This document shows, piece by piece, positions 1,856-20,200 of a DNA stretch of 40,284 bases. The position numbers and the translations under genes are program-made. The notes beneath the pieces are model-generated. The model did not search any database and was not told where the DNA came from. It worked only from the letters and a program-made list of their open reading frames with translations. The stretch is from NCBI GenBank assembly GCA_035389045.1, contig DAOORA010000037.1, positions 1 to 40,284 on the forward strand, written 5' to 3'. This DNA comes from Bacteroidales bacterium. GTDB taxonomy: Bacteria; Bacteroidota; Bacteroidia; Bacteroidales; CAIWKO01. The first letter of the stretch is position 1. Every line of letters starts with the position of its first letter.

Positions 1856-3049
1856 TTATTTATTGATTATCAAATACTTATTATAGCCAATTTTATTAAA
1901 GGCATCACTCTTCAGCGCTTTTTCCACTTCATTTGTTTTGCCTGTATAGGGATACAAAACAGTTCCTCTTTTTAAGAGTGTCAGGTTTTCACCACTTTTG
2001 GTCACCCCCCCTTTTTGAAAGGCGACATAATTCACAGCATTTTTCTGCTGTGTAACAATATTTTGAAAATTAACATCATCATTGATTGTAAACAGGCAGT
2101 TTTCAATAACATCATTGGAACAAAAACAATTGCTCGTAAGTATAATCACATCATGCTCTCTACAATGATTTTCCTGAAAAGTTTTTTTATCAAAAATATT
2201 ATCAAAACTTTTTTCTTTTGCATCCGTAACTTCCATTTTAAAAAAACTGCGTTCGCCACCCATGGTGATAATTCTTGAACCAAACTCTTTGTCGTTTGGC
2301 AAGTCTAAATCTACAAAAAAAGCAAAGCAAAAATCGTTAGCCAGTTTGTAAAACACTTGTTTATAAAAATCGCCTTTATCATCACGTCTTTTTACTATTT
2401 CCCGATGAATACCAACCTGTTCATGTTTAATAAAAAACCCATTATCAAATCCATGAGTATCTTCGAATTCCAAAGGATCAACGTAATCCCATTGGCGTAA
2501 ATTTTTTCCATCACTGCTTACCCATAGCGAAACTAACCCATATTTCGGGTCGAATGGTTTATTATTTACAAGTAAAGACGGAATGCTTTTTGAATAATTT
2601 TCGAAAATGACAAAATCATTAGGTGCATTAAAGAAATCAACAATGACAGGTGCGATTTTCATATCCATTACCGCGCAATTATTGACTTTTTCATCTTTTT
2701 CCAATCCGTAATTTGCCCAATCAAGAGTCTGTGTTGTATAGTGTATATTTCCATCTGAAATAAAAACCGGGGAAATATTCTTAATAGCTCCAAAATCATC
2801 GACGAATTTATTATTTAGTTTCTGGAAACTATCTTCGCCAATTAGTAATTTCCATTCTTTTGCTATCGGGTCCGTACCTATCAAATTATTTTGAATCAGT
2901 AGTTCATGCCTGAGCATACCTAAAAGAGTAGTTTGCTGCGGTAAATAATTGGAACGGGCGAAGTAGTTTATTTTGCCATCGCCAAAAGTATTTTCTCCAC
3001 CAAAAAAGTATGGAGTCAATGGTTTTAAAGTGATTAGAATTTTATTCAT
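1856..3049 (-). CDS. cmr3: Type III-B Cmr3 (Cas5 group)
   Basis: LKPLTPYFFGGE, SNYLPQQTTLLGMLR, MGGERS and C-terminal IGYN motifs. Overlaps the cas10 stop; alternative start at 3058. Confidence 0.92.
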   Translation of the reverse strand: MNKILITLKPLTPYFFGGENTFGDGKINYFARSNYLPQQTTLLGMLRHELLIQNNLIGTDPIAKEWKLLIGEDSFQKLNNKFVDDFGAIKNISPVFISDGNIHYTTQTLDWANYGLEKDEKVNNCAVMDMKIAPVIVDFFNAPNDFVIFENYSKSIPSLLVNNKPFDPKYGLVSLWVSSDGKNLRQWDYVDPLEFEDTHGFDNGFFIKHEQVGIHREIVKRRDDKGDFYKQVFYKLANDFCFAFFVDLDLPNDKEFGSRIITMGGERSFFKMEVTDAKEKSFDNIFDKKTFQENHCREHDVIILTSNCFCSNDVIENCLFTINDDVNFQNIVTQQKNAVNYVAFQKGGVTKSGENLTLLKRGTVLYPYTGKTNEVEKALKSDAFNKIGYNKYLIINK

Positions 3050-4718
3050 GATTGTCATTTGCGTTTAAAAATTGAACAAATCTGAGGCAACTGTAAATTC
3101 TCGAAATCCTTTTATCTTCATGATTTTCGTCAACGGGTTTTTCATGGGCAAACCACGAAAATGTTTCGTGAATGATGTGTCTTACTGCCTCAAAAAATGC
3201 CTGATAATTTTTGTGTGATGCCTCATTGAAGTTTTCGTCAAAAAAGTATTTCAATTTATTCACATCATTTGCAATTTCAATTATTATTTTTTTCTGGTTA
3301 TTGATTTTGAACATAACAGAATTTAGAAAATTCTCATCCTTGCCCTTACTTTCGGTGCATAAATTCAGAAAGTAATAATACAATGGTGTATTTTGTGTGA
3401 AGCCAAAATCTAATGATTGCCCTGAATGTTTCTCCAGTTTCAGAGCAATGTAGTTTTTGCATGGCTGTTTTTTTGCATTATAAAACAATAGTTCGTAGCT
3501 CTCTGCAAGAATTTCATTCATCGGTTTCTTATAATACCCGACAGACAAACCAAAACTAAGGGAAACCGTTTTATCTTTCATATATTTGTTGACAATGGGC
3601 GCTAATTTTTCTTTAAACATAAAATTCAATCTGGTCATCAGAAAAAACACATTGTTGCCATTTACCCTATATTTTTCATTCTTCTCAGGAGGAAAAAGCT
3701 CCCGAAAATCTAAACCCTCAAATTCATATTTATCATTGGTTAATGGTGCAAAAAACAAGAGGTCGTCACCGCCCATATAAATTGGGAATGCTCCGTATTT
3801 TTTCAATTCACCGGCTGCACTGCTGACAAATTCGTTTAACGCATTAGAAAAGCTCATGATATCACCATTGTTTTTTTCAATTTCTCCGATGAGTGAACCT
3901 ACATTATCCCCATCTGCCTGAACAATGGTAAAATATTTGTGTCGAAATTTAAAATTGTCTTTAAATTCCGATTTCAATGCATTAATAATATTATCTTCAA
4001 TTTGTTCATCCTCTTTGTTTTGAGCTAATTGCTCAAAGTTAATTTCCCCATTTGACGTTTTAAGGTACTGAATACCTAAAGCGTTCCAATATTCAGAAGG
4101 GTGTTGTTTCTCAAGTTCTGTTGTAGAAATTTCAGGTATAGATTTAAACCGTTTAAATGTTTTAGATTTTGCACCACTGTATTTGACCAAAATTGGGGGT
4201 AAAATTTCATCATCGCCATATCCTTTTTCATATAAATTTTGAAAAAATTCAGGACTAACACTTTGGGTATTCCAATAATAATTAATATCAAATGTCTTGA
4301 TGCTGAAATACTTCTTTGAGAGTTCCAAACCATCCAATATTACATTTAACGACTTAATAGGATTGCATGCAATCTCTTTTTGTACAACATATATTTGAAA
4401 ATATGCTAATTCGTTCGGATTATACCCTGTCGCCAAACTAAATTCTTTAAGTGCAATTTCTTTATTATTGTTAATTTCAGTCTCTGTCATGGCTTTGTTG
4501 AGCTTGATATAACAACGGTCTGGATATACCCCAGCTCCATGCAGTGGTAATTTAACATTAGGACTTGGCGAAAGCAATTCCCCATGCTTACTGAATTCAT
4601 CAATAAGGTATTTCATTAAAAGCGAAAAACTGAAACTAGCACTCCAAAGCTCCCGGGTTTTGCGGGCTTGGGACATAGTTTTGTAGATAGGTCCGATGGT
4701 GAGGGCGAGGTATTTCAT
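3042..4718 (-). CDS. cas10: Type III-B Cas10/Cmr2, no HD nuclease domain, intact cyclase palm
   Basis: Starts directly at LTIGPIYKTMSQARKTRELWSAS (no HD domain); QADGDNVG and YMGGDD (3762-3773) palm motifs; 558 aa. Confidence 0.95.
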   Translation of the reverse strand: MKYLALTIGPIYKTMSQARKTRELWSASFSFSLLMKYLIDEFSKHGELLSPSPNVKLPLHGAGVYPDRCYIKLNKAMTETEINNNKEIALKEFSLATGYNPNELAYFQIYVVQKEIACNPIKSLNVILDGLELSKKYFSIKTFDINYYWNTQSVSPEFFQNLYEKGYGDDEILPPILVKYSGAKSKTFKRFKSIPEISTTELEKQHPSEYWNALGIQYLKTSNGEINFEQLAQNKEDEQIEDNIINALKSEFKDNFKFRHKYFTIVQADGDNVGSLIGEIEKNNGDIMSFSNALNEFVSSAAGELKKYGAFPIYMGGDDLLFFAPLTNDKYEFEGLDFRELFPPEKNEKYRVNGNNVFFLMTRLNFMFKEKLAPIVNKYMKDKTVSLSFGLSVGYYKKPMNEILAESYELLFYNAKKQPCKNYIALKLEKHSGQSLDFGFTQNTPLYYYFLNLCTESKGKDENFLNSVMFKINNQKKIIIEIANDVNKLKYFFDENFNEASHKNYQAFFEAVRHIIHETFSWFAHEKPVDENHEDKRISRIYSCLRFVQFLNANDNHE

Positions 4719-4721
4719 AAC

Positions 4722-6017
4722 TTATATTTTTGTCCAGGTGGAATTTAAAGAATTTATCAAAAAAGCATCAATGTCAAAACTACTTGGGATGTCTATATTA
4801 AATGAATGAGGTGTGCCTCCATTTTTTAATTTTAAGGTAATAGTTACCGTTTTGCCATAAATTGCAACAAAGGAGTTGTTTGGTATTAAATAAATATCAT
4901 TATTTATTACTTTAAATGTTATAGGGGACTGAAATCTTTCTAATCCTACAGCAGAGCCATCTATTTTTGCAACCATTTTATTTCCCCTATCAACCGGATT
5001 GCCAACCTGGAATTCAATTTGCTCTGCTAAACCTAATAAAGCCCGAATATATTGGTAGTTATTTGTTTGCTTATCAGTAAAACTATTGTAGTCACTACCT
5101 GTAGCATCAACAATATCAATCGGTTCATTTCTTTTGGTTAAATCAATACCATAAAATTTTGCTGCTTTGTTGGAGTTGAATTCTTGTTTTATTTTTCTCT
5201 TTTCCCATCTTATGGGGTTGGGTAGGTTTACGAAATATTCAAATAATTTTGATTTATTATATACACCATGGTTTATACCACTTTTTAAAAGTTGATATTC
5301 TTCCTTTATTATTTTAAAAATTGTGTTTATTCTAGTGTTGGCATTCCCATTAATACTTTTCTTAAAAGTGCCGGGGGGAAACATCCTCGTATTAATTTCT
5401 TGAGCAACACCATTCATTTTTGAAATAGTAAACGAGCCAAATCCTTTATTTTGCCTAGTTCCGAAATTTGTTTGAAGAAAGAATGAAACAATATGTTTTT
5501 CAATTTCACCTGAAATTTCCTTTGATAATGTTATAATTTCCAAACTAATACCACTATTACTTTGTTTTGCAAGTGCAACTTCATTAAGTTTGCTTCTAGT
5601 TCTATCAATCGCATTTTGATTAAATTTAATCTTATCTTCGTTTGCAAAGTAAAGAGTTGGAGCTATAATATTATTTATATTAATACTAAGTGAAGTGGCA
5701 ATAGCAATCTTCTTTTCAGGATTATTTTGTTCAAGTGCGAGAGGCAAAAATAAGGTTTCATCATTATTTTTTTCTTGAATCTTCATTTTATAATTCAAAG
5801 CCGGATGCTCTCCATTACCAACCAACCATTTTTTCCATTCGGGATTTTCTTTAAATTTATCGAATGCTGACTTTCCTTTTATTCCCGTCAATTTCTCAAT
5901 AATAAACCTATCCAGTTTTGGTTTTACTTCGGTTGCTCTTAGGGTAGCCCCATCCTGCTCGTGCTGGAAGTGGATAATAGGCGTGTGCTGTTTTAATGTA
6001 AAATTGATTGTGTACAT
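4722..6017 (-). CDS. cmr1: Type III-B RAMP Cmr1 (Bacteroidota type)
   Basis: LKQHTPIIHFQ..GATLRATEVKPKLDRFI, NFGTRQNKGFGSF, RALLGLA, RFQSPITFK; directly upstream of cas10. Confidence 0.88.
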   Translation of the reverse strand: MYTINFTLKQHTPIIHFQHEQDGATLRATEVKPKLDRFIIEKLTGIKGKSAFDKFKENPEWKKWLVGNGEHPALNYKMKIQEKNNDETLFLPLALEQNNPEKKIAIATSLSININNIIAPTLYFANEDKIKFNQNAIDRTRSKLNEVALAKQSNSGISLEIITLSKEISGEIEKHIVSFFLQTNFGTRQNKGFGSFTISKMNGVAQEINTRMFPPGTFKKSINGNANTRINTIFKIIKEEYQLLKSGINHGVYNKSKLFEYFVNLPNPIRWEKRKIKQEFNSNKAAKFYGIDLTKRNEPIDIVDATGSDYNSFTDKQTNNYQYIRALLGLAEQIEFQVGNPVDRGNKMVAKIDGSAVGLERFQSPITFKVINNDIYLIPNNSFVAIYGKTVTITLKLKNGGTPHSFNIDIPSSFDIDAFLINSLNSTWTKI

Positions 6018-6022
6018 AGCTG

Positions 6023-6625
6023 TTATTGGTTTTCAGTTTGAGTACCTGTATTGTTTTCTTTTTTATTTTTTTCTGTTGGTTTTTTTTCAAGAATTTCTTT
6101 TAAAATATTGGTGTCTATTTTCTCTTCCTGCACCTCCACTTTTTTATCGCCTTCTCCGGTTATTGTTTTGGTTTTAACCTTTGCCAATTCAAGCATTTTG
6201 GCATAATCGGCAAAAGCGGTTCGATTTTCTTCGTAGTCTTGCCTTCTCTTTTTCTCTTCATCCGAAATCTCGTTTTTCGAACCGTTTTCTGTTGGGGTTT
6301 CCTGCCGGCAATTTTCCCGGCAATAAAATGCAAACTGAATCTGCTGGTATATGTTCATCACCAAAATAACAACACCGCCGACCAATAGCAAAATCAATGC
6401 AGCGCAAAATAAAATTTGTACTACACCAGCACTTATAATCTTATCAAAGGAATAAACTGACCCAGCCTTCACTACCACCGTGCTTACATAGTCGCCAATG
6501 CACTTATTAAAACAACAAACCAAAACAAACCCCAGCAATGCTAATACAATTAATATATATGCATGCCATGCAAGACAGGGAAATTTGTGGTATTTATATT
6601 GTTTACCATTTGTTTTATCGTCCAT
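6023..6625 (-). CDS. Hypothetical membrane protein, two N-terminal TM segments and a charged C-terminal tail
   Basis: Hydrophobic runs AYILIVLALLGFVLVCCF and VVQILFCAALILLLVGGVVILVM, then a K/E-rich region. Its stop is 5 nt before the cmr1 start. Confidence 0.7.
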   Translation of the reverse strand: MDDKTNGKQYKYHKFPCLAWHAYILIVLALLGFVLVCCFNKCIGDYVSTVVVKAGSVYSFDKIISAGVVQILFCAALILLLVGGVVILVMNIYQQIQFAFYCRENCRQETPTENGSKNEISDEEKKRRQDYEENRTAFADYAKMLELAKVKTKTITGEGDKKVEVQEEKIDTNILKEILEKKPTEKNKKENNTGTQTENQ

Positions 6626-6718
6626 TTACAATTTTTTTTCAAAAATAAAAATTAAAACTATATACAAATTATTTTTTAATAAAAAAACTTATTAACTATT
6701 TAAATGTATAAAGATTAG

Positions 6719-8464
6719 CTATTTAACTGTATAAAAACAAATGGCAGAAATCAGAGTGAGTATAACGACAAGCAAAGAAATCAGGATAATACCGGTTTTC
6801 TTCAACCTGGTTCCGGCCTGAATTGATTTTCCTCTCAAAATAAGATAAAAAATACCCGCGCTCATAAACATGGCCGGCGTCACCAACCATAAAGTCCATA
6901 AATTCACTTCAAAACCAGGTTTTGAAATATTAAACATATTCATGCCGAAAAAGGATGCAATAAAAGAGGGTATCACAAATAAAGCCCCGATAATAGTCAA
7001 CAGCGCAATATTTTTGTTTTGCTTTTCCTCTTCCACCAGATTAACATAGTTATGCAGCTCACTAATCTCTCCATCCAGATCATGAACGTGCCCTTTAATA
7101 TTCATAACCTCCTGCATCAGGTTATAGAGTTCAATTCCCTGCTCCTGAGCCGTAATTTCACGAAAATATATTTTGTTCACAAACCGCAGGTACTGCTTAT
7201 ACAGGCTGCTGACTTTGCCGGGTAAATACTTACTTTCTTTATCCTTCATGGCCGATATGGCCGTTACTTCATCGGAGAACCGCAAAACGCAGGCTCGTTG
7301 AAGCAGGCATAATTCGGTCATTTTATAATACATGGTCTGCACATGATTGAGCAGGAAGGCAGAATTATATTCTTTGAGTTTTTCCAAAGATGAAGTAAGG
7401 CATACAAAGGAATATCTGGAAACACCGAAAATAGTACCAAAATTCAACCATCGCACATTGGTGTGTTTTTCCAGAAATTGTGATGACATCTTGCTGTTCT
7501 GGCAAGTCATCATGCCGCTTCCGTCAACAAAAATATACTTATACAACCATTCATTGGTTAGATATGCCGGCGAGGTCATATCATATTTACCATCCTTTTG
7601 GGGAGGAATTAAATTGCCGGACAATTCGTCATTTCCATACCAGCAAATAACAAACATTCTGTCGTCGAGCAAGGGTTCTATGTTAATCTTCGTTGATCCG
7701 TTATCTGCATCCATTTTGTTATGAGCCAGGGGTACCTGATTAAACAAGCTATCCATAAATGCCGGCAGCCTGAGCACTCCCTGCCTGAAATAAGCGGGAT
7801 CGGTATACACTGAGAAATCTTCTATGCCTGTAATGCTTATTTCGATTTCATCGGCAAGTTCAGCATTCTTTACAGCAGTCAATCCCTTTGTAAAATCAAC
7901 ATAATCATACTGTTCAGGACTGCCGGTTACACCCCGGTCCATGCCAAAAAAAGGAGGAAAAAGCCGCCTGCCATGCTGGTTAATGTTCAGAATATCATCG
8001 GGGCTGGCCTGATCTGCATTACGGTTGTTAAGATGAAACGATAACACACCCACGCCCGTATTGTACAAATGCAGCAATATGGAGTCGATTAGCAGATGAT
8101 AGGTTTTTACGACTCCCTGCTTGTTTAGCCTAATAGAGTAAACCGCCTCATCCATTTTAATATCATAACTGAAATGTGCAATAAATTGCTCATCTGCTTT
8201 TTCCCGGCTAATCTCCGGCACCTTTTTGACGTCGTACATTGCCTGCCTGACAAAGTCATAAAAATAGTTGTATTCGTTATAGTTCAACACTGTATCGGGT
8301 ACAAACTGATTTTGTTTCCAGGGTGTTTTATCCAAAAAAGAAACAAAATCCTTCAGATTGGTTTTTTCTTCAAAGTTTTTACTAACGTAGTTTTTTCCGG
8401 TATAACTCCATTGAAATGGAAATAAAAATACGTGATAACTGTACAGTTCACATGGTTGATTCAT
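6719..8464 (-). CDS. corA: CRISPR-associated CorA-family membrane effector
   Basis: Large N-terminal soluble domain (YSYHVFLFPF, DDRMFV, RW..FGT.FGVSRYSF, EITAQEQGIELY) and C-terminal TM helices with the CorA GMN motif (ASFFGMN); adjacent to cmr genes. Confidence 0.9.
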   Translation of the reverse strand: MNQPCELYSYHVFLFPFQWSYTGKNYVSKNFEEKTNLKDFVSFLDKTPWKQNQFVPDTVLNYNEYNYFYDFVRQAMYDVKKVPEISREKADEQFIAHFSYDIKMDEAVYSIRLNKQGVVKTYHLLIDSILLHLYNTGVGVLSFHLNNRNADQASPDDILNINQHGRRLFPPFFGMDRGVTGSPEQYDYVDFTKGLTAVKNAELADEIEISITGIEDFSVYTDPAYFRQGVLRLPAFMDSLFNQVPLAHNKMDADNGSTKINIEPLLDDRMFVICWYGNDELSGNLIPPQKDGKYDMTSPAYLTNEWLYKYIFVDGSGMMTCQNSKMSSQFLEKHTNVRWLNFGTIFGVSRYSFVCLTSSLEKLKEYNSAFLLNHVQTMYYKMTELCLLQRACVLRFSDEVTAISAMKDKESKYLPGKVSSLYKQYLRFVNKIYFREITAQEQGIELYNLMQEVMNIKGHVHDLDGEISELHNYVNLVEEEKQNKNIALLTIIGALFVIPSFIASFFGMNMFNISKPGFEVNLWTLWLVTPAMFMSAGIFYLILRGKSIQAGTRLKKTGIILISLLVVILTLISAICFYTVK

Positions 8465-8475
8465 GGTTGTAATTT

Positions 8476-9222
8476 TTATTTGATTATTTCTATAATTTCA
8501 TTAACATTTGTGTATTCTGCCCTGATTCCAAAAAAGCCATCCTCTCCTCCTCCATACCATGCGTTTTTCGCCGTTACTAATTCATGAAAATGCAGGGCAA
8601 ATTTATCAGTTCCTTCTCCGTAGTAGCAATAATTGGTTTCGTTATAAATCAAAAGCTTTTGGAAAGGAAACAAGCGGTCGGTGATGGTCGAAAAAAAGCT
8701 GGTTAAAGATCTCACCACAGTAATGCCATTTTCCACTTGCATATTTTCCCTTATTGACTTTTCAGCTAGTTTTTCATCAAGAGGTTTGGCTCCCTGCGCT
8801 TTGCGGTCGGCTTTACGTATCCGTTCAATTTCCACTTTGCCTGCTCCGAGTTTTTGCATGGCAGGGATGTATCCCTTGTCATTGGCGGCAATAAGCATTT
8901 GCCTTTTGGAAAGTTTTATCTTCAGCAGGCTGGCAAGCTGTTCTATGGATGAATCATTATTACTGTTTTCGTTATGATGATCTATTTCAATATATTTCTT
9001 TGGATGGTCAATATCTATGATTAATTCTATACCAACAAATGTTTTATCATCATCAAAACAATCTTTATAAGAACTTAATTTTGCACCCCACGTCAAATTC
9101 CTGTCATAAAAATCAACTTCATTTTTTAGGTTTTTTCTTTCAAGAATATTCCTGATTTCGAGCATTTCCAGGTCATGCCCTCCCAAAAGAAAAATGCAGG
9201 ATAAGAGTTCTTTATCTTTCAT
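8476..9222 (-). CDS. nrn: NrN-like DHH-family phosphodiesterase (candidate signal-degrading enzyme)
   Basis: FLLGGHDLEM, LTWGAKLSSY, IEIDHH (8974-8982), SSIEQ, IAANDKGYIPAM; 11 nt upstream of corA, the usual nrn-corA arrangement. Confidence 0.82.
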   Translation of the reverse strand: MKDKELLSCIFLLGGHDLEMLEIRNILERKNLKNEVDFYDRNLTWGAKLSSYKDCFDDDKTFVGIELIIDIDHPKKYIEIDHHNENSNNDSSIEQLASLLKIKLSKRQMLIAANDKGYIPAMQKLGAGKVEIERIRKADRKAQGAKPLDEKLAEKSIRENMQVENGITVVRSLTSFFSTITDRLFPFQKLLIYNETNYCYYGEGTDKFALHFHELVTAKNAWYGGGEDGFFGIRAEYTNVNEIIEIIK

Positions 9223-9799
9223 TTTCCATCAAATATTTTATTACCTCCTCATTCCCCGAAATAATTCCCGAAACTTTCAGCTTTGTATTGATCTTTTCAG
9301 CCACGAATTGCCAGTAAAGTCGCTGATATTTTGAGATATCATCATAATCGGAGTTTTCCTGATAATTGCTCAAGGTACGCCTCACTCTTTTAATATTTTC
9401 ATCAATAAGGTCGTAAAAAAGATCGGTTACTTCTTTGCTGTTCATCAGATAAATAGTCTTATCCAAGCCATACATACCGACTGTTATTGAAGGATAATGA
9501 CCGTTACGACACACCAGTTTGATATCATCAAAACGAATTCTCAATTGGTATGATTCTGATGATTCAAGCAAAATCAATAATAACTCCCAGTCGAAATCAG
9601 ATTCGTTGATATCGCCGGGAAGCCTGTATCGAAATGCAGGTAAAGGCTCAACCCTTTTTTTATACCAGGGGTGATTTTCAATTTTATTCTCTTCAACAAT
9701 AGTAAATTCATTAATATATGACAGACATTGCTCTTCATTTTTCCTGCGCCAATCGGTAAACACTTCTTCGAAAGAATATTTATGTTCTGCTGTTTTCAT
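9212..9799 (-). CDS. Hypothetical soluble protein, translationally coupled between the ClpX paralogue and nrn
   Basis: 195-aa ORF with ATGA overlap with the upstream gene (9796-9799) and 11-nt overlap with nrn. No motif recognised. Confidence 0.75.
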   Translation of the reverse strand: MKTAEHKYSFEEVFTDWRRKNEEQCLSYINEFTIVEENKIENHPWYKKRVEPLPAFRYRLPGDINESDFDWELLLILLESSESYQLRIRFDDIKLVCRNGHYPSITVGMYGLDKTIYLMNSKEVTDLFYDLIDENIKRVRRTLSNYQENSDYDDISKYQRLYWQFVAEKINTKLKVSGIISGNEEVIKYLMENER

Positions 9800-11256
9800 T
9801 TATTAAAGGTTTTAATAAAATCATCTTTTGTTATATGAAAAGTTTCCATGATGATATTTGGAGACTGAAATAATGCCTCTGAAAGTAATTTCTGAAGTAT
9901 TCCACGAATAGCACGAGCTCCCAGCTTAAGTTCAATCACCCTGTCAGCGATCATTTCGCACACATCATCGTCAACAATTAGTTTATCGTAATGTATCCAG
10001 AAAAAATTCTCATATGCATTCAAAAATGAATCCTGGGTGTTTTTAATTATTTCGATTATTTGTTGTTTGGTCAATATGTCCAATGCCAGGTAATAATTTA
10101 TTCGGCCCACGAGTTCCGGAATGATCCCAAAATCAATAAAATCCTGCGGGCTGACACTTTTGAGAATATTATCCGCCGAAGTTTCGTGACCAGCCATGGC
10201 CGATCTGAATCCAATGACAGTGGCATTCATGCGTTTTTCAATAATTCTCTCAATTCCCGCAAAACTACCGCTGAATATAAACATAAGGTTCTTTGTTTTA
10301 AACGCCATGCCTTCTGCATATCGGCCAAGATCCTGTTTTATCACTCTGTCAGCGCCCTCAATAAGTGACAGAAATTCCTGCTGCAAAGCAACACCCCCGA
10401 CATTGCCTTTATTTGTATTTTGTTCGCTGATCTTATCGAATTCATCAAAAAACACCACTCCATTCTCTGCGTCAAACTTTGTTCTTGCCTTTAAATACAA
10501 CAAGGTCAACGCATCTTCAATATTTGAACCGATATATCCTGAACTTACCATTTGTGCGCAATCGACTTTGACAAAAGGCACATCATACATTTCACACAGC
10601 GTTTTTATGATATGCGTTTTCCCGGAACCGGTTGGCCCCAATAACATGATATGCGGATCCGGCAGCAAAACATCGCCTGATCTGCGCGAAACATTTGTAA
10701 TATTATATATTTCCGGGATGATCCGCCTTGTCCTGATAAGATGCAGGTAAAAAGCAAAACTCATATGTTTTTTAGCTTCATCCTGCCCTTTAACAAATTT
10801 GCACAACTCTTTGTAAATGTCTTTTGGCTTTCTGAATGTCGTTAGATGTTGTTTTTTCAGCACCTCATCAGATTCAGAAAAATATATCCTGAAAATGTTG
10901 AAATAATCAGATTTCTCAACGTTACTCAGCTTTTTGAAATAGTTTTCCCAGGTAGTTAATTTTTCAATCGGTGATATGTGACTTTTATTCTTATCATAGA
11001 TTTTTTTACATACATCCACCTCCAGCAGCCACAATATTTCTTTTTTCAGATTAGCTTCCTCACTGATTTCTTTTTTCAGGGTATCGTAAATAGCCAAAAC
11101 TTCGGGCTGGCTTAATTTTGCAATAACCTGCATCAGGAAATATACATCTGAGCTTGTCAATGCCTGGGTGAAAAACAAACAACGGGCAAAATCGTTTTTA
11201 TCTTCAATAAAGTCAGGAATCTGTATAGCTTCAATACCAAAAAACATGTCACCCAT
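9796..11256 (-). CDS. ClpX-like AAA+ ATPase with an atypical N-terminal domain
   Basis: VKGQDEAKK, Walker A GPTGSGKT, pore loop GYIG, Walker B FFDEFDKI, IGF loop (TVIGFRS), PELVGR, LGARAIR. No C4 zinc-binding domain and no adjacent clpP. Confidence 0.9.
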   Translation of the reverse strand: MGDMFFGIEAIQIPDFIEDKNDFARCLFFTQALTSSDVYFLMQVIAKLSQPEVLAIYDTLKKEISEEANLKKEILWLLEVDVCKKIYDKNKSHISPIEKLTTWENYFKKLSNVEKSDYFNIFRIYFSESDEVLKKQHLTTFRKPKDIYKELCKFVKGQDEAKKHMSFAFYLHLIRTRRIIPEIYNITNVSRRSGDVLLPDPHIMLLGPTGSGKTHIIKTLCEMYDVPFVKVDCAQMVSSGYIGSNIEDALTLLYLKARTKFDAENGVVFFDEFDKISEQNTNKGNVGGVALQQEFLSLIEGADRVIKQDLGRYAEGMAFKTKNLMFIFSGSFAGIERIIEKRMNATVIGFRSAMAGHETSADNILKSVSPQDFIDFGIIPELVGRINYYLALDILTKQQIIEIIKNTQDSFLNAYENFFWIHYDKLIVDDDVCEMIADRVIELKLGARAIRGILQKLLSEALFQSPNIIMETFHITKDDFIKTFNK

Positions 11257-11299
11257 AAGAACAAATTTAAAAATTTATATAAAAATCATAAATTGTCAT

Positions 11300-11307
11300 C
11301 AAATATA
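11300..11307 (-). promoter_or_regulatory. Candidate Bacteroidota -7 promoter element for the clpX-like to cmr operon
   Basis: TATATTTG on the minus strand (TAnnTTTG consensus) about 45 nt upstream of the start. The region is AT-rich, so a chance match is possible. Confidence 0.35.
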
Positions 11308-11431
11308 CATATTTTTAACCCGTGAAATTTTTATAAAATAAATTTGTTAACAAGGAAAACATGAAAATGTTTCCCGGCGACCGTTACCATTAATCCACAA
11401 ATATCATACTTAATAATTAATTATATTCATT

Positions 11432-12694
11432 ATGCTTAAACAAGAATTTTTTACCAACATCGGGCTTCCCCTGGAGGAATTTTTGCGAAACCAGATTTAC
11501 AATGCCTTGCAGGGCGAAACTGTAGAGATCATTTTCAAAGAAGCCAAAGTCAGGAAAACTGAAAACTACTGGAAATACATGCTGGAAGGCCACAGCTTTA
11601 AAGTGGACAAAAATATCTCAAAAAAACTTTACACTCTTTTTAACTCCGTTAAAGAAAACCTCGGATATAAAGAAAAACTTGATTTTTATATTTCCAGCGA
11701 CTCCAGTGTCAATGCTTTTGCATTATCCAGTACCGAAGACGACGAGCCTAATATCATCAACATCAATTCTTCATTGCTGAAACTGATGAACGACGATGAA
11801 CTGAGATTCATCATAGGCCATGAGATCGGGCATCTGATAAATAAAAACGCCAACCTGAACAAACTCATCAATTTTGTATTTCCAACAAACTCGAATCTGC
11901 CCGGAGTGTTGATGAACAAGATACGCCTTTGGGAACAGTTATCGGAACTCATCGCCGACAGGTACGGTTTTCTGGCTAACCCAAGCCTGCCGGTATGTAT
12001 CTCGGCATTTTTCAAAATGTCTTCGGGCATGGATGCCAAAGTAGTGGATCTGGATATCAATGCTTTTATGACAGAAAACGAAAATCGTCTTGAATATTTC
12101 AGGAAAGAAAAGGGGCTGAACATTGCTTCGCATCCCATAAACCCCATCCGGATCAAAGCCATTGATTTGTTTTCGAAATCCGACAGGTTTGCCGGTGAAT
12201 CTGGAATAGGAAACTGGCTGACTGATGCCGACCTCGACAAACAAATGACAGAACTCACAGGGGTTCTGCTAAAGGTAAAAAACTCGGAGCTGGATTATCA
12301 TATTTCATATTTTGTGGCCGCTGCAGGCATCATTTGCTCCGGAATAGACGGCGAATTCAACGACCGTGAAGCGGAAATCATCATGCAGGCGCTTTCTGAT
12401 TTCAGCCTTTTTCCGGCAAATTTCTTCGAAGAAATTATTGAGAGTAAAAAAGTGTTTGAGACATTTAATTCATCTGTTAAAAACATACTGGAAATAAACC
12501 CCGCCGAAAAAGATAATTTGCTGGATTTTCTTATCAACCTTGTGATGGCTGATAAAAAAATCAAATCCGACGAACTGAAGTTTATTTTTGAGGTAGGTAC
12601 AGGTTTGCTGGGGTTTACCCGTAAAGAAGTAGCCCAGATCTTTGCATCGTTCATTCAGCGCAATTACATGCCCAGCATACACGATCTGGGTTGA
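11432..12694 (+). CDS. M48-family zinc metallopeptidase with C-terminal TerB-like domain
   Basis: VNAFA, HEIGH (HExxH), ELIADRYG, ASHP..IRI. C-terminal paired TerB-like motifs GIDGEFNDREAE and MADKKIKSDE. No signal peptide or clear TM segment. Confidence 0.82.
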   Translation: MLKQEFFTNIGLPLEEFLRNQIYNALQGETVEIIFKEAKVRKTENYWKYMLEGHSFKVDKNISKKLYTLFNSVKENLGYKEKLDFYISSDSSVNAFALSSTEDDEPNIININSSLLKLMNDDELRFIIGHEIGHLINKNANLNKLINFVFPTNSNLPGVLMNKIRLWEQLSELIADRYGFLANPSLPVCISAFFKMSSGMDAKVVDLDINAFMTENENRLEYFRKEKGLNIASHPINPIRIKAIDLFSKSDRFAGESGIGNWLTDADLDKQMTELTGVLLKVKNSELDYHISYFVAAAGIICSGIDGEFNDREAEIIMQALSDFSLFPANFFEEIIESKKVFETFNSSVKNILEINPAEKDNLLDFLINLVMADKKIKSDELKFIFEVGTGLLGFTRKEVAQIFASFIQRNYMPSIHDLG

Positions 12695-13405
12695 TCAATA
12701 CCGTTTCCTTCTCAGGCTAACCGAGGTCTTCCAAAGTTTTTCAAAAGTTGCCAGATAAGCATTTGCAACATCCGTGTCGGAGAGCACAACAATGTTCTCT
12801 CCGTTTTCCATGGCTGCAGTGCGGGTCCAGTTGTAGCTGCCGGTTATAGTGCGGACTTTGTCAATCACAACGAATTTGTTATGCATCAGCGCCGGACGGT
12901 TGTCTGTCCTGATAGAAATATTGGTTTCAGAAAGCCGGTGGATGTCCGAGCCTTCATCATAACATTTGTCATCATCGGTGATGATACGGATATGTATCCC
13001 ATTATTTTGCGCACTCATCAAAGCCTCTGAGATAAAGTTGTCACTGATAGTAAAAACACAGATATCCAGAGTTTTTTTGGCATCCAGTATTGCCTGGCGG
13101 ATACGTTTCCGGCAACCTTCACCCGGGCTGAAATAGACCTCAGGCTTTGCAGCAGCAACCGGTTCTCTCACACGTTCCAGAAGTTTCAGAGATTCTTCCA
13201 GCCAGCTAAGAACTTTCAATGGGTCACTGCCTGATATGACAGAAGCCGCCTTATCGAACATATAACTTCTTAAGGCTCCGTAATCGGAACCATGTAGTCT
13301 GGCGCCTTTAAGCAGCGCTAACATATCTTCTTTCTCCGTGCCGGATATGGTAAAAGTTTGAACTGTCCAGTCTATTAATGCATATAATTGCTCCCTGTTT
13401 TTCAT
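12695..13405 (-). CDS. Phospholipase D-superfamily (Nuc/Zucchini-like) protein, single HKD motif
   Basis: YFSPG, LDICVFTISD, MHNKFVVID..TITGSYNWT..A..NGEN, with a helical N-terminal extension. Confidence 0.9.
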   Translation of the reverse strand: MKNREQLYALIDWTVQTFTISGTEKEDMLALLKGARLHGSDYGALRSYMFDKAASVISGSDPLKVLSWLEESLKLLERVREPVAAAKPEVYFSPGEGCRKRIRQAILDAKKTLDICVFTISDNFISEALMSAQNNGIHIRIITDDDKCYDEGSDIHRLSETNISIRTDNRPALMHNKFVVIDKVRTITGSYNWTRTAAMENGENIVVLSDTDVANAYLATFEKLWKTSVSLRRKRY

Positions 13406-13676
13406 TGATCCCTTTCCGTTTGATTAAGAAATTGTTTTGATTTTATCTTTTAATATCTTTATGCGCCTTTTTTGCTGCAAATCGTTAGATTTTTCGACAT
13501 AGGGTAAACTATGTCTGCAAAATCTGCCTTGTTTCGCTAAAAAATCCATCATAAATCTTATGTAACATAAAATCAAAACAGTTTCTAAAATTCAGCGGAT
13601 AAAAATATTACAAAAATATTTATTTACAGAAAACTTAATCGTAGTTTTGAAAAAAATTCCTGCCATTGTTCAATTA

Positions 13677-14714
13677 ATGGAAACCATGTCCGGTAAAAAA
13701 TACATTGTCCATGGCAAGTGCCAGAAAGATGCTGACAAAAAAACTTGTGGCGATTTTCTGCTTTACAGGGAAATCAGCGATGAAGGTATCGTTGTGTTAG
13801 TAATGGCTGATGGAGTGGGTTCGCGGCATCACGACTTTATAGCTTCCAATAACGCCTGCAATGCTTTTGTTGATTCATTTTTAAACAATCAGTCGGGCAA
13901 TATGATTCAAAGATTTGAAACAGCTTTAAAGAAAGCCGACCATGAGGTTTCAAGTCCATTGGAGCCGGCATATCATGGTATGATGTCCGTTTTTTTGGCA
14001 GTGGTATGGAATACAAACGAGAATTATTTCTTATGGGATTGTATCGGGGATAGCAGGTTGTATAAATATTCAGCAGAAGGATTGATACAAATAAGCCTGG
14101 ATGGAAAGAAAGCAGTGAATATGCGCGACAAAAGCGGTAAACTGCTGATACAGGATGGCGTGCTGGTCATCAGGGAAGGTCTTACCAATGCTTTGGGATA
14201 TAATGGCGCCCGCATCTCAGTGAAAAGGCAGGATTTCCATGAAGGTGAATCTCTTGTCCTTTGTACTGATGGTATGTACGAAATTGATGATTTTGACGGA
14301 GCTATTACCGGATTTTTATCATCCGGTATTTCTGAAAAAAGATTAGAAAAATTCTTTTCTGCAAATAGGGATTATTTTAAAGATGATGCCAGCATGTTGA
14401 TATTGCAGAGAACCGATCAGCCGCAGAATTATGAACAAAAATATCAGGAAGTGATCCGTAATGGTTCGGATTACAGGCAATTCCGGATATTGCCACATTT
14501 GATAACAAATTATATACAACCGGAAATGCTCAGGCTTGTCAAAGAAAAAAATGAAACCGGCCTGAAAATATTTGCTGCTTATATAGCGGAACATAATTTG
14601 CTCTTAACCGAAGATTTCATCAACAAGGCAATACAGGAAATGAAAGCCACTGATTATATAAATCCTGACTTTTACCACTTGCTGATCAGACAGTTGAAAA
14701 AAATCAACTGGTAA
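13677..14714 (+). CDS. PP2C/PPM-family protein phosphatase with C-terminal helical extension
   Basis: CGD, MADGVGS, IGDSRLY, LTNALG, LCTDGM, DDASM motifs. ATG 13677 preferred over TTG 13647. Confidence 0.88.
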   Translation: METMSGKKYIVHGKCQKDADKKTCGDFLLYREISDEGIVVLVMADGVGSRHHDFIASNNACNAFVDSFLNNQSGNMIQRFETALKKADHEVSSPLEPAYHGMMSVFLAVVWNTNENYFLWDCIGDSRLYKYSAEGLIQISLDGKKAVNMRDKSGKLLIQDGVLVIREGLTNALGYNGARISVKRQDFHEGESLVLCTDGMYEIDDFDGAITGFLSSGISEKRLEKFFSANRDYFKDDASMLILQRTDQPQNYEQKYQEVIRNGSDYRQFRILPHLITNYIQPEMLRLVKEKNETGLKIFAAYIAEHNLLLTEDFINKAIQEMKATDYINPDFYHLLIRQLKKINW

Positions 14715-15073: not shown

Positions 15074-16318
15074 TTATAACTCTGTCACTTTTCTGGCCAT
15101 TTCTTTTAAACTTGAATCTTCCAACCCGGCAAAATATCCATAAGTTACTTTAATATCACTATGCTTGAAAGCATCACCGACCATGTCCATCGTGTAGCCA
15201 TCTCGCAGGCTTTTGGTCGCAAAACTGTGACGCGCCCAGTATGTACTTATGCCTTCAGGCAAATGTAATTTTTTTGCAAGATTTTTTATATGTTGATTAA
15301 TAAATCTCGTGAAGTTTCTTATCGCATGGTACTGTCGTTTTTCATCCCATCCGGGTTTAAGAATGCTGAATACATAATTGTTGACGCTGCGGGGTGAGGT
15401 GCCGTATTTTTCAATAACCCTGCGTGAAATATCTGTAAGGAATGCTTCTTGTTCTTCAATATCTTTTTTCGAGGTATTCTGGGTTTTGGATCTTAAATAA
15501 ACGATCTTATCATCGTAAATATTCCTCCATTTCAGTAATGCGATATCCTTTATGTTCATGCCGAATGTAGCAAAACTGAAGAACCAGAAATCTCTTGCTT
15601 TTTCCTGATAAGGATTTTTTACTTCCGCATTTAAAAGTATTCTAAGATGCTCTGTTGTCAGTGCCTTTTTCACTTTTTTGACCGATGGTCTGACGTATTT
15701 CTTTTTGCCAAAAGGATAAATATCTTTAGTGATATCGCTACTCTCGATGGCGAGGTTAAAAACGGCCTGAATTGCACGTGTATATATGGAAACGGTAGTT
15801 CTGCTTGATCCGTGATCCAGCATATAATCTTCAAAGTTCTGAAGCCATTTGGGCGTTATTTCAATAAAAGGAAGATACTCTATTTCTTTCCCGCTGTTTT
15901 CCCTGAGAAAATCCTTCATCTTTTTCTTACAGCATTCATATATGGTGTAAGTACTATACTGCTTATGAGCTTTAAATTCATCTATCCTCAGATCAAAGTA
16001 ATAAAACACATTTTTACCATCGCCTTTTGCTCTGAAAAATTTACGTTCAAAAACCTCAAAAGTGAAGGGACGAATGTCCTTCAGGACTTCATTGGCACGG
16101 CTGAGGACCTCTGTCATCAGCCGGTATTTATCCATGTTTTCGGCTTTAGGTTTTTTGACTCCCCACGTTTCATCGAACTCTTTTTGATTTTGGTCAATTT
16201 TGATATAATAGGCCTTGGATTTTTTTGTAATATCGTCATAAACCCGGAGTTTGACAGGATAGGTATTATCCCTCTTATTTCTTCTGGTATCAAGAATTAT
16301 AGAAGTATTAGCGCTCAT
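15074..16318 (-). CDS. Tyrosine recombinase / site-specific integrase (Bacteroidota type)
   Basis: N-terminal arm-binding-like LDTRR...YPVKLRV, SAM-like middle domain, GMNIKD, RSKT, TYWARHSFAT, KHSDIKVTYGY (catalytic Tyr); next to a tRNA fragment. Confidence 0.93.
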   Translation of the reverse strand: MSANTSIILDTRRNKRDNTYPVKLRVYDDITKKSKAYYIKIDQNQKEFDETWGVKKPKAENMDKYRLMTEVLSRANEVLKDIRPFTFEVFERKFFRAKGDGKNVFYYFDLRIDEFKAHKQYSTYTIYECCKKKMKDFLRENSGKEIEYLPFIEITPKWLQNFEDYMLDHGSSRTTVSIYTRAIQAVFNLAIESSDITKDIYPFGKKKYVRPSVKKVKKALTTEHLRILLNAEVKNPYQEKARDFWFFSFATFGMNIKDIALLKWRNIYDDKIVYLRSKTQNTSKKDIEEQEAFLTDISRRVIEKYGTSPRSVNNYVFSILKPGWDEKRQYHAIRNFTRFINQHIKNLAKKLHLPEGISTYWARHSFATKSLRDGYTMDMVGDAFKHSDIKVTYGYFAGLEDSSLKEMARKVTEL

Positions 16319-16582: not shown

Positions 16583-16632
16583 CTTGCATGGGGTGCAAGG
16601 GGTCGGAAGTTCGAGTCTTCTCGCCCCGACCA
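16583..16632 (+). mobile_element. att site (attR-like): 3' half of tRNA-Pro(GGG)
   Basis: Anticodon arm CTTGC-ATGGGGT-GCAAG, T arm GGAAG-TTCGAGT-CTTCT and acceptor 3' strand CGCCCCG-ACCA. The 5' acceptor strand and D arm are absent upstream. Confidence 0.88.
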
Positions 16633-16970
16633 ATAAAATCAAGGGTTTCAGAGTTTCTGAAATCCTTTTTTGTTTTCAGGGTAACACAATGTTGTATACA
16701 AATTTTAAAATATGACGCGGTGGGCTGGCGTATCCCGGCCGAGGCGCCGGGAGGGTCGGAAGTTCTCCGCCGGCTGGCGGATCGCCCCGACCAATAAAGA
16801 TAAGGGTTTCAGAGTTTCTGAAATCCTTTTTTGTTTGGAGGGTAACACAATGTTGTACACAAATTTTAAAATATGACGCAGTGGGCTGGCGTATCCCGGC
16901 CGAGGCGCCGGGAGGGTCGGAAGTTCTCCGCTGCTAATAAAATCAAGGGGTTCAGAGTTTCTAAAATTCA
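16600..16970 (+). repeat. Tandem 153-161 bp repeat (about 2.4 copies) of decayed tRNA-Pro 3' end plus terminator plus flank
   Basis: GGGTCGGAAGTTC at 16600, 16753 and 16914, each followed by AATAAA..AAGGG(T/G)TTCAGAGTTTCT; GGGTAACACAATGTTGTA..CCCGGCCGAGGCGCCGGG occurs twice. Confidence 0.9.
16641..16677 (+). terminator. Intrinsic terminator-like hairpin after the tRNA fragment (repeated at about 16802-16836)
   Basis: AAGGGTTTCAGA-GTT-TCTGAAATCCTT followed by a T run. Confidence 0.65.
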
Positions 16971-17223: not shown

Positions 17224-20200
17224 TTATCGTATCATCTTCAGCACAGCATGTTCAGACCTTTGCGAACTCTCAAATCCGAGTTTGAAAGTATACATGCCTT
17301 CCGGCCAGTCCTTTCCTGAAAATTCAACCTTATGAGCGCCCTGAAGTTGCGATTCGTTAACCAGTGTGGTAACCAGTTCACCAATAGCATTGTATACGTT
17401 CAGCACCACTTTTCCGCTTTCAGGCAGGCTGTATGACAAAGAAGTTTCCCCATTGAACGGATTCGGATATCCGGATATTTCCATCCCGGATTCAATGTCA
17501 GCGCTCTGTACCAGAACTTTTGGCATCAGCAGGTATACATCTTGACCTTCTGTTCCATACTGGTCAGCCATCACACCCGTACCGTACATTTCAAATTGAA
17601 GTTCTCCCGGTCTTTGCATATGGACAGAACGGAAAGCAAGAACGATCACCTGTTCACCGGCTTCCACATCAAAATGGTTTGTGGTTGCATACACCACCCT
17701 GATTACGCCTTGCTCATCGGTTACCAGCAGGTCGTTATCTTTGGCAATGATTTCTTCTAAGGTTGGGTTAATCTTTTCCATATTCCCTTTTTCGGACTTA
17801 TTGGGCAGATAGGCGCCCACAAGTTCAAAATCATTGTCCGGATAAGTCAGCTCCAGGCTCATAGCAGAAAAGTCGTTTATAGCATCGCTGATACGCAAAG
17901 GAATTTCAAAATAGGCCGGATTGGTAGTGGAAATATACTCATCAGCTACCGTAATAATATTTTCAGGATAAGACTTAGTCATGTTCCAGTTAACCACCGA
18001 ATCACGGTATTTGGTGCTGGAAGCATTATAATCACCGTAACAGATTGTTTTCAGATCAATGGTAAGGTTCGCACCGTTGACCGTAACCGAAGTATCCAAT
18101 GCCACCCAGTTGCCTTTGGGGAAATTTTTACTTACATTATAGGGTGATCCTACTTTTGCCTTGATTCTTGAAATATCGATAGCATTTATTGATGCGTTAT
18201 TATCAACATTAGCTGCTTTTCTGTATTTGGGATAAAAATTTCTGGACGGATCATTCAGGGTATCACTGCCGATATAGTATTTTATCAGGGCCAGGTCAAT
18301 AGCATTGACATCATTACCCCATTGCATGGTATCTAATGTGTATTTGTCATAAGATAATATATAGCTGCCGTTGGCAACGCCGGTGAACTGGTAAACGCCT
18401 GAAACATCGCTGGTATCTCTGGCCACTTCTGTTCCTCCGGGATTATTCTTTAAGATAACAATAACATTATCGATGTTATATATAACAGAGTTGTATGTTG
18501 CCGGATTAGGTGCAGGGGAGCCATTGATGGCTTTACCGGTATAACGGGTTTTTCCGCTGATGGTATAGCCGGTACCTGTAACAGTGAGGATGCCTGAAAC
18601 ATTGGTTGTGCCGTTCCAGAATCCTGCATTATAACCACCGTAGTAATAAGAGCCGTTACCTAATTTGAAACGGCTGGCATAATAATATACTCCAGCAGGA
18701 AGTGTGCTTCCGATATTGGCTTTATACTCATCATTATTTCCGTCATCGGCATTATAGGTGGCAGCGACCCAGTTTGTCCAGGTATTGGGGTTGGTATTGG
18801 CTGTATTATAACCGATCCAGGCCTGTATACCGGCGCCCTGCCCTGCCACATCGGTAACACCGGGTGCATAAACTCTGGAATACACATCATACGTACTCCC
18901 CGCTGCTATAGTATCTGCTTCAGGCCACTGTACATTGCACCAGTTTATGGTTAAATGGTTCACCGTCACTATACCCGAAACAGACGTGATCCCATTCCAG
19001 AAACCTGAATTATACCCGCCGTAGAAATAGGTTCCGCCATTGAGTTGAAACCGGCTTGCGTAATAAATTACGCCTGCAGGCAGTGAAGTTCCGATATTAG
19101 CGATATATTCATCATTATTACCGGCATCGAGATTAAATGTTGCAGGAATCCAGTTGATCCAGGTGCCTGGATGGGTATTTAAAGAACTATATCCTATCCA
19201 TGCCTGAATGCCGGCACCCTGGCCTATGGTGTCGGTAATGCCCGGTGCGTAAACCTGTGCATACACGTTAAAAGCAGCTCCTTCGACTATGGTATCGGCT
19301 GACGGCCATTGTATGTTGCACCATGTTATTTCGTTTACGGTCAATACACCTGATTTATTGGTTGTTCCATCCCATAATCCGGCATTATATCCACCATAAA
19401 AATAAGCACCGCTGTTCAATTTGAAACGGCTGGCATAATAATACAACCCGGAAGGAAGTGCAGCGCCTATATTTGCTTTGTATTCATCATTATTTCCGGC
19501 ATCTGCATAAAAGTTTGCAGGGAGCCAGTTGGTCCAAGTATCCGGATTTGTATTGGAGGTACTGTATCCGATCCACGCCTGAATACCGGTACCTTGTCCG
19601 GCCGCATCAGTAATTCCCTCTGCATAAACACGGGCATAGACGTCGATGGAGCCGCCTACCGTAATGGTATCAGCCGCAGGCCATTGTACATTACACCAGG
19701 AAATTACTCCGCTGTTCACTTTCAACGACCCGGAAACATTGGTTGTCCCGTCCCAGAAACCTGAATTGAATCCGCCATAATAGTATGCTCCGCTGCCCAG
19801 CTGAAAACGACTGGCATAAAAGTATGTTCCGGCAGGTAAGGTACTTCCAATATTTGCATTATATTCATCATTATTACCTTCATCGGCATAATAGGTCGCA
19901 GGAACCCAGTTTGTCCATGTATTGGGGTTGGTATTGGTGTCGCTGTAGCCGATCCAGGCCTGTATGCCGGCGCCCTGTCCTACAGTGTCGGTAAGACCGG
20001 GAGCATAAACACGGGCATACACATTATATGTTCCGCCTGCCAGAATAGTATCTGAAGCAGGCCACTGGAGATTACACCAGGTGATATCATTAACCGTCAG
20101 CACACCGGAAAGATTGGTCGTGCCATTCCAGTATCCTGAATTATAACCGCCATAGCAATACGAGCCGCTCCCTAATTTAAAGCGACTGGCATAATAATAG

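Follow-up and report, generated by a model that had tools for sequence, protein, structure and literature searches.

A ClpX-like ATPase with an exchanged N-terminal domain and a dedicated partner gene in a predicted type III-B CRISPR operon of a Bacteroidales bacterium

What does a second ClpX-like ATPase do in a genome that already encodes a canonical ClpX beside ClpP? The question is raised by a gene at positions 9796..11256, on the minus strand, of a 40,284-nucleotide stretch of DNA from a Bacteroidales bacterium (contig DAOORA010000037.1 of assembly GCA_035389045.1; this whole stretch is called the window below). Its 486-aa product, which starts at an ATG, is referred to here as ClpXL. ClpX is among the best understood unfolding motors, and its choice of substrate is set by its N-terminal domain (N-domain), its RKH loops and its pore-2 loops. 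An earlier reading, made from the letters of the window alone (the sequence-only reading), had proposed that ClpXL keeps the motor and the ClpP-docking loop of ClpX, carries swapped substrate-recognition parts and acts as an accessory unfoldase that borrows the host ClpP for a dedicated target. We found that, across the family to which ClpXL belongs, all three specificity elements have been exchanged or have diverged and a partner protein of its own has been gained, while the ClpP-docking tripeptide has mostly been kept.

The assignment of ClpXL to the ClpX-like ATPases is based on its open reading frame, NCBIfam ClpX models, a solved structure and a separate position in phylogenetic trees. 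Its similarity to ClpX is far above chance (E 1.8e-75 for NCBIfam ClpX), Pfam detects AAA_2, AAA and ClpB_D2-small domains, and its closest solved relative is the ClpX of Helicobacter pylori (PDB 1um8, E 8.4e-50, query residues 141-482). Both ClpX equivalog models (the pair TIGR00382/NF003745) nevertheless score it below their cut-offs (254.4 versus 359 bits for one and 231.5 versus 370.75 bits for the other), and the cut-off of the HslU equivalog TIGR00390 is not reached either (104.5 versus 362.45 bits, in 3 separate stretches). The assembly, which is 96.3% complete in 135 contigs and in which the window is contig C37, holds a canonical clpX on contig C1 (L001:1462-2703, minus strand) that scores 580.4 bits, above the cut-off, and lies directly beside clpP, the one copy of clpP in the genome. 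This housekeeping ClpX has the C4 finger, GYVG and RKH, and has IGY, not IGF, at the docking tripeptide. ClpXL is 34% identical to it over residues 134-467, which span the large and small domains of the AAA+ module.

A protein search resolved three tiers: ClpXL itself; about 42 clusters of proteins of 456-493 aa, without a zinc finger, at 257-781 bits; and canonical ClpX proteins with PF06689 at about 200 bits. The family alignment (A1) comprises 40 members. A FastTree phylogeny of 91 rows placed 50 family rows on one side and canonical ClpX, together with a clade of proteins of about 400 aa, on the other. An IQ-TREE quick tree of 43 rows, the genome's own ClpX included, split off the 23 family rows (Shimodaira-Hasegawa approximate likelihood-ratio test [SH-aLRT] 99) and united the 15 canonical ClpX rows, again with the genome's own among them (SH-aLRT 100). 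In an approximately unbiased test, a tree that joins canonical ClpX with ClpXL and the relative nearest to it was rejected (p 0.031), although the post hoc choice of the group weakens this test. We conclude that ClpXL is a paralogue in a clade apart from housekeeping ClpX. The sequence-only reading had asked for this phylogeny and had predicted an accessory paralogue; the prediction stands, as a separate canonical clpP-clpX pair is present on contig C1 and ClpXL is neither the only ClpX of its genome nor a member of the housekeeping group. The clade of about 400-aa ClpX-like proteins (P0044-P0071), on the canonical side of the tree, is a second one without a zinc finger, and on the same side a small clade of L020 (L020:9794-12931) and P0068 has a PTH2 peptidyl-tRNA hydrolase and a deoxynucleoside monophosphate kinase-like gene downstream; L020, P0068 and P0044-P0071 were excluded from all family counts. 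A phage origin of ClpXL was considered and rejected: the 46 viral-contig loci returned by a scan with the family alignment contained no family member and none with the N-domain or partner described below, the best of them covering the AAA+ core only, at 35% identity.

Every motor motif that had been called intact was recovered. On the minus strand these are Walker A (GPTGSGKT, residues 207-214, 10615..10638), the pore-1 loop (GYIG, residues 240-243, 10528..10539), Walker B (FFDEFD, residues 269-274, 10435..10452), VGR at the Arg-finger position (residues 383-385, 10102..10110) and GARAIR at the sensor-II position (residues 446-451, 9904..9921). Invariant across the 40 family members are G207, G210, G212 and K213 of Walker A, G240, Y241 and G243 of pore-1 and F270, D271, E272 and D274 of Walker B, as well as R385 and R448, whose counterparts in alignments with solved ClpX are the arginines of the Arg finger and sensor II. 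The tripeptide IGF is found, as claimed, at the position of the ClpP-docking loop (residues 348-350, 10207..10215, minus strand), where, in the alignments, H. pylori ClpX has LGF and the genome's own ClpX has IGY. Two of the specificity elements also lie within this region, and both diverge as had been proposed. The pore-2 region (NKGNVGG, residues 282-288, 10393..10413, minus strand) is 3 residues short relative to H. pylori ClpX and to the genome's own ClpX, and it is followed by the family signature QQEFL, with the block G.VGG..QQEFL invariant in the 40-member alignment. At the RKH-loop equivalent (LGRYAE, residues 310-315, 10312..10329, minus strand) RKH is lost: the 'GRKH' of both 1um8 and the genome's own ClpX pairs with 'GR-Y' of ClpXL, with deletions, and the region is variable across the family.

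The third specificity element is the N-domain. The ClpX match in ClpXL begins at residue 127-143 (from 127-133 with the NCBIfam models), and the preceding residues 1-143 (10828..11256, minus strand) occupy the place of the C4 zinc-binding domain. No match to zf-C4_ClpX (PF06689) was obtained in ClpXL at E<=0.01 in Pfam, and residues 1-143 contain two cysteines only, Cys26 and Cys83. An AlphaFold2 model of these residues, built from an 11-row alignment, consists of eight helices (predicted local distance difference test [pLDDT] 76, predicted template modelling score 0.69), and Y6, G7, F28 and W103 are its landmarks in the 40-member alignment. A profile of this domain built without the window row recognized residues 20-141 of ClpXL at E 2.5e-7, the next best window protein reaching 0.1. 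We conclude that the zinc-finger, adaptor-docking domain of ClpX has been swapped in ClpXL for a family-specific helical N-domain, which upholds the claim that about 140 aa of unrelated helical sequence replace the C4 domain. A fold search had been suggested for residues 1-140; with the helical model, which is of moderate confidence, neither Foldseek (best E 2.1) nor VIA (best Z 3.7) found a fold in the PDB by which the domain could be named.

The replacement domain is accompanied by a gene. Immediately downstream of ClpXL, with a start that overlaps the ClpXL stop by 4 nt, lies a reading frame for a 195-aa protein (9212..9799, minus strand) that has no Pfam, NCBIfam or PADLOC match; we call it the partner. 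BLASTP and profile searches place it in a new family of domains of about 150-200 aa, stand-alone or fused. The association was examined in 14 family loci, namely the window, L005-L009, L011 and L012 from a scan of a genome collection and L015-L019 and L021 from a metagenome scan (L014 is the window's own contig). The partner was adjacent to ClpXL in 11 of these loci, fused to the ClpXL N-terminus in 2 (L009 and L011) and absent from 1, so that 13 of the 14 show the association. It lies immediately downstream of ClpXL in the window, L006, L012 (which has two pairs), L015-L019 and L021, and on the opposite strand, between ClpXL and a gene for an M48 peptidase with a TerB domain (M48-TerB), in L005 and L007. 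As a control, none of 118 other AAA+ loci (72 metagenomic, 46 viral) matched the partner or N-domain profile at E<=0.01. A partner profile built without the window row recognized the window partner at E 3.8e-12, with the next best window protein at 0.023; L015 and L021 were left out of partner-profile building. L018 and L019 carry near-identical ClpXL-partner pairs in different surroundings, and the pair is therefore a mobile two-gene unit. In L012 (L012:151-3693) the two ClpX-like genes are convergent, each with its own partner gene, and the second ATPase (2347-3693, minus strand) is very divergent and sits on a long tree branch; P0008 with P0014 and P0009 with P0022 hint at further paired paralogues, as the two members of each couple have a longest contig of equal length.

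Structure modelling predicts that the partner binds the ClpXL N-domain. The complex of the N-domain (alignment A3) with the partner (family alignment A2) reached an interface confidence score (ipSAE) of 0.75 (runs 0.76, 0.71 and 0.75), compared with 0.00 for the best of 3 controls. Of 157 solved complexes, 116 attain the mark that we applied to this score, as do 2 of 215 mismatched pairs; this calibration is rough here, our own alignments having been used. The runs had at least 88% of their contacts in common, with a partner pLDDT of at least 64, and the predicted contact surface lies between residues 30-94 of the N-domain and, on the partner, residues 85-94 together with a long helix at the C-terminus (154-189). 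We know of no comparable complex. A co-inherited partner that is a predicted binder of the new N-domain supports the dedicated specificity that the sequence-only reading had suspected. The partner model itself (pLDDT 70) had no convincing match in the PDB (Foldseek best E 0.24, VIA-wide best Z 3.3), and for both the N-domain and the partner the ESM Atlas gave no usable feature match, every structural TM score being <0.5. Faint rows in the Atlas and VIA results had raised the idea of a TerB-like N-domain, which was rejected when hhalign against the M48-TerB alignment gave a probability of 0.2%; the same comparison gave 0.3% for the partner.

The partner domain extends far beyond ClpXL. An exhaustive profile search of 1.84 billion representatives retrieved 505 proteins at E<=0.001, 402 of them at E<=1e-10, so that the module, itself new, is fairly widespread at 505 representative clusters. 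Most of these proteins are stand-alone and 170-200 aa long, and some hold two or three copies of the domain (2-3 tandem copies in P0121-P0126). Pfam analysis of 26 longer representatives identified 2 ClpX-like fusions, 10 with a C-terminal DUF2971 domain (P0146, P0155, P0158, P0162, P0169, P0171, P0173, P0193, P0225 and P0233), 1 with a kinase-like domain (P0199) and 1 with a HerA/FtsK-like ATPase (P0257); the remainder had no significant Pfam domain, two giving weak matches below the gathering score. DUF2971 is described as an ADP-ribosyltransferase (ART)-like (DarT-like) family that is also carried by the lactococcal antiphage protein Aristaios (PMC12522546, PMC11381338). Attachment of one small domain to several unrelated effector types would be expected if it serves conflict systems as a sensor, regulator or adaptor, and learning what it responds to could throw light on several unexplored defence systems together. 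Within the phylum, the partner was present in 1 of 401 sampled genomes, the sole positive being the window's own genome.

Where the pair sits in the window bears on its function. ClpXL is the promoter-proximal gene of a run of 11 minus-strand genes separated by overlaps or short gaps: ClpXL, the partner, NrN, CorA, a membrane protein and Cmr1-6. The gene that follows the partner encodes an NrN-type, CorA-associated DHH phosphoesterase (8476..9222; PADLOC DHH_CorA E 4.7e-81, DHH motif at residue 81), and the next a CRISPR-associated CorA-like membrane effector (6719..8464; PADLOC E 6e-128, Pfam CorA E 7.6e-13). Between corA and cmr1 lies a gene for a 200-aa protein with hydrophobic segments, a Lys/Glu-rich tail and no family match (6023..6625); a 23-nt unit occurs twice (90% match) at 6691-6735, from the corA 3' end into the gap before this gene. 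The run ends with cmr1 (4722-6017, PADLOC) and, each recognized by PADLOC and Pfam, cas10/cmr2 (3042-4718), cmr3 (1856-3058), cmr4 (1093-1848), cmr5 (696-1121) and cmr6 (3-683). Cas10 has GGDD at residue 316 and lacks the HD motif in its first 80 residues. With CorA, NrN, Cmr1-6 and a Cas10 that GGDD marks as cyclase-competent, the locus is by gene content a type III-B CRISPR system of the CorA/NrN kind, for which S-adenosyl methionine-AMP (SAM-AMP) is the described signal. No cas6 was found in the window. The Cmr operon stops at the very start of contig C37, where an array may have been lost at the contig break, and a Cas1-like match lies on contig C9 (C9:93633-94277).

On the other side of ClpXL, across a 175-bp divergent intergenic region (11257..11431) that is likely to hold the putative promoters of both genes, a plus-strand gene encodes an M48 zinc metallopeptidase with a C-terminal TerB domain (11432..12694; Pfam Peptidase_M48 E 1.8e-13, TerB E 1.2e-4). 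This protein is cytosolic-looking, and its HEIGH (at 130) and ELIAD (at 172) motifs are both intact. Beyond it lie genes for a phospholipase D (PLD)-family nuclease (12695-13405, minus strand), a PP2C phosphatase (13647-14714, plus strand) and a tyrosine integrase (15074-16318, minus strand), which, with M48-TerB beside the CRISPR operon, look like a defence island. Just past the integrase, a 161-bp direct repeat in 1.9 copies (16621-16931) may mark an island boundary. Further along, the minus-strand frame 17224-21228 encodes a 1334-aa protein with a type IX secretion system C-terminal sorting domain and about 4.8 tandem units of 375-381 nt (18596-20460, 70% match). A sigma-70 promoter scan (26 sites, compared with 24.1 +/- 5.2 in shuffled sequences) was uninformative on operon structure, a terminator scan found 5 sites (5.7 +/- 2.4 in shuffles) and Rfam had no match in the window. 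Pfam and other family scans found no tig, clpP or lon in the window, as had been noted from the letters. Because of its position in the CRISPR operon and its M48-TerB neighbour, the likely role of ClpXL moves from general regulated proteolysis to antiviral defence.

Taking these results together, the explanation that we favour, and to which we give about an even chance, is that ClpXL and its partner are a dedicated unfoldase-adaptor pair acting in defence, with degradation most likely via the host ClpP. ClpXL would be a ClpX-derived, presumably hexameric AAA+ unfoldase whose N-domain binds the dedicated partner of about 180 aa, encoded immediately downstream and probably translationally coupled, and the pair would be a mobile module that belongs to the defence islands of genomes of the Bacteroidota type. 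Acting as an adaptor or sensor, the partner would select a presumed target protein, and the ATPase would thread the target through its pore. Degradation of the unfolded chain would follow, for which the single ClpP of the host, docked via the IGF loop, is the likeliest protease and the linked M48 peptidase a possible alternative or addition. The pair may also be under the control of CRISPR signalling.

Several observations weigh against this explanation or parts of it. No CRISPR array was detected in the window or in the 135 contigs by TRF and a 22-mer scan, arrays often being unassembled. In one locus, L008, the partner is missing from the 10 kb to each side of ClpXL. The score of the predicted complex is the model's own confidence and no measurement. 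Comparison of the models (pLDDT 70 and 76) with the PDB revealed no recognisable sensor fold in the partner or the N-domain, and the known signal sensors CARF and SAVED gave no Pfam or PADLOC match in ClpXL or the partner, either of which may carry a new sensor fold. The IGF tripeptide is the single feature that points to docking of ClpXL on the host ClpP, and 8 of the 40 family members have lost an IGF-like tripeptide (RGY in 3, EGF in 1, SKY in 1 and TKY in 3). These losses fall in two clades, and with them ClpP docking cannot be universal in the family. Finally, 9 of the 14 family loci have no type III gene in the stretch examined, two of them being contigs <3 kb, and the tie to CRISPR may reflect clustering in defence islands instead of coupling.

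The last of these points leads to the alternative that survives best, in which the pair is an autonomous defence or conflict module, sometimes with M48-TerB, that lies beside CRISPR genes by clustering and is uncoupled from Cas10 signalling; we regard this as possible, if on the doubtful side. It would accommodate the loci without type III genes, the shared pairs of L018 and L019 and the varied neighbours of the family, which elsewhere include Tubulin_2, TerB, RelA_SpoT, leucine-rich repeat, transglutaminase and large unknown proteins. It would also accommodate a partner domain whose 505 clusters far exceed the ClpXL family and which occurs with other effector domains. Against it stand the loci where the linkage is tight. 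In the window and in L005, where CorA and NrN lie beside the pair and the contig stops just beyond, the pair is in or directly against a CorA-NrN operon whose genes overlap or nearly abut. In two others a CRISPR array ends less than 400 bp before ClpXL: one of 26 repeats in L008, at a distance of 376 bp and accompanied by Cmr4-6, Cas6, RT-Cas1 (RT, reverse transcriptase) and Cas2, and one of 12 repeats in L018, at 162 bp and accompanied by RT and Cas1. With the weaker link in L011, where Csm3 is about 8 kb off across insertion sequence elements, type III genes or arrays lie near ClpXL in 5 of 14 loci (window, L005, L008, L011 and L018), which, as a raw count, seems high for a system so rare. 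Among the neighbourhoods themselves, L017:405-9768 and L009:9369-17132 give the pair as neighbours Tubulin_2-domain proteins, one protein like RelA_SpoT, one small TerB protein and several large ones without a family match, and may represent another multi-gene conflict system; a homologue of the window's PP2C occurs in L018 and in the distant L027, and not in L019.

A second alternative concerns what becomes of the unfolded protein. ClpXL could be a ClpP-independent remodeller that unfolds or disassembles a complex without degradation or hands its substrate over to M48-TerB, possible substrates being the partner's cargo, CorA or the Cmr complex. The loss of IGF-like tripeptides in two clades speaks for this explanation, and one of them, the [ST]KY clade (P0013, P0020, P0023, P0024 and L005), takes in both M48-linked loci L005 and L007 (the latter identical to P0023). 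M48-TerB homologues (46% identical) recur beside the pair in two distant subclades, and the M48-TerB protein of the window has intact HEIGH and ELIAD motifs. The window ClpXL, however, has both IGF and the M48 neighbour, an IGF-like [ILMV]G[FY] is kept in 32 of the 40 members, and the M48-TerB neighbour is present in 3 of 14 loci only (window, L005 and L007). The low hhalign probabilities given above leave no profile similarity between M48-TerB and the N-domain or partner, no other sign of contact was seen, and M48 peptidases are not, to our knowledge, partners of AAA+ rings. We therefore think remodelling of this kind unlikely. Both this and the autonomous module overlap with the unfoldase-adaptor pair in the parts that are shown.

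A more specific version of the defence role would make ClpXL and its partner a new class of type III ancillary machinery, in which the partner domain senses SAM-AMP or a phage cue and directs the unfoldase, with degradation via ClpP or M48-TerB; we offer it tentatively and would not expect it to hold in full. As the target one could imagine CorA itself, the Cmr complex, a protein of a phage or else a latent toxin or antitoxin. If it is true, ATP-dependent unfolding or proteolysis joins the ancillary activities of CRISPR systems, and CRISPR immunity would be executed or reset by targeted protein unfolding; the presence of ClpXL in a CorA/NrN operon would then offer a concrete starting point for asking how immunity that acts through a membrane effector could be controlled or reset. 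Very improbable, by comparison, is a non-defence accessory ClpX of the housekeeping type that uses ClpP to degrade, under regulation, some cellular protein with no bearing on immunity: the intact IGF and motor motifs and the existence of ClpX paralogues with separate roles in other bacteria (Myxococcus xanthus has three clpX genes, PMC11423568) would allow it, but the gene sits in a CRISPR operon next to an integrase, a PLD nuclease and a PP2C phosphatase, the partner has a patchy, island-like distribution (the single genome of 401), and its domain is fused elsewhere to ART-like toxin domains.

How, then, does a dedicated unfoldase-adaptor pair acting in defence compare with systems already described? 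With canonical ClpX, ClpXL shares Walker A and B, the pore-1 GY[IV]G, the Arg finger, sensor II and an IGF-type tripeptide; it differs in lacking the C4 domain and RKH, in a short pore-2 loop with its own signature, in scoring below the ClpX cut-offs, and in belonging to a separate clade whose window member is tied to a dedicated partner gene and not placed next to clpP. SspB and RssB are ClpX adaptors that dock on the N-domain. The partner resembles them as a small protein that is predicted to bind the N-domain of an unfoldase and is genetically dedicated to ClpXL, but it has no family or fold match, is fused to the ATPase in some genomes and occurs elsewhere as a domain fused to ART-like, kinase-like and HerA-like domains. 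In these respects it is less reminiscent of a housekeeping adaptor than of a shared sensor or regulatory module.

A type III-B CRISPR system with CorA and NrN in which SAM-AMP is the signal has been described by Chi et al. 2023 (PMC10600005). The window has the same combination of Cmr1-6, a Cas10 with GGDD and without HD, a CorA-like effector and NrN in one operon. It adds ClpXL, the partner and M48-TerB, and has the 200-aa membrane protein between corA and cmr1; the main text on the described system mentions no Clp, AAA or ATPase. Likewise, the main texts of three papers on type III accessory genes (PMC10600005, PMC11229360 and PMC6546367) do not contain 'Clp', although their supplements could list such a gene, and a full-text literature search returned no paper in which an ATPase resembling ClpX is tied to CorA, to type III CRISPR or to anti-phage systems. 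Among the models of PADLOC (2023), none covers ClpXL or the partner beyond weak P-loop matches of ClpXL to IetA of IetAS (E 5.6e-9) and DolB of Dodola (E 1.5e-6). These matches span about 90-240 residues only, the NCBIfam IteA model gives 28.5 bits compared with a cut-off of 510, and both systems have other partner proteins.

The remaining comparison is with proteolysis that is already linked to CRISPR. Signalling through a CRISPR-linked protease is known from the Lon-SAVED protein CalpL and from Craspase. These systems and the window have in common that proteolysis or unfolding machinery lies within a type III locus. Neither Pfam nor PADLOC detected SAVED, CARF or TPR-CHAT here, and whereas CalpL and Craspase employ signal-gated endopeptidases, ClpXL is predicted to be an ATP-driven motor of the ClpX type. 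The novelty lies in a motor of the ClpX type whose specificity parts are new, whose partner comes from a new family and whose CRISPR-linked context is likewise new. A divergent second ClpX, placed with its own small partner at the head of a type III CRISPR operon, suggests a part for targeted unfolding or breakdown of proteins in the antiviral defence of bacteria.

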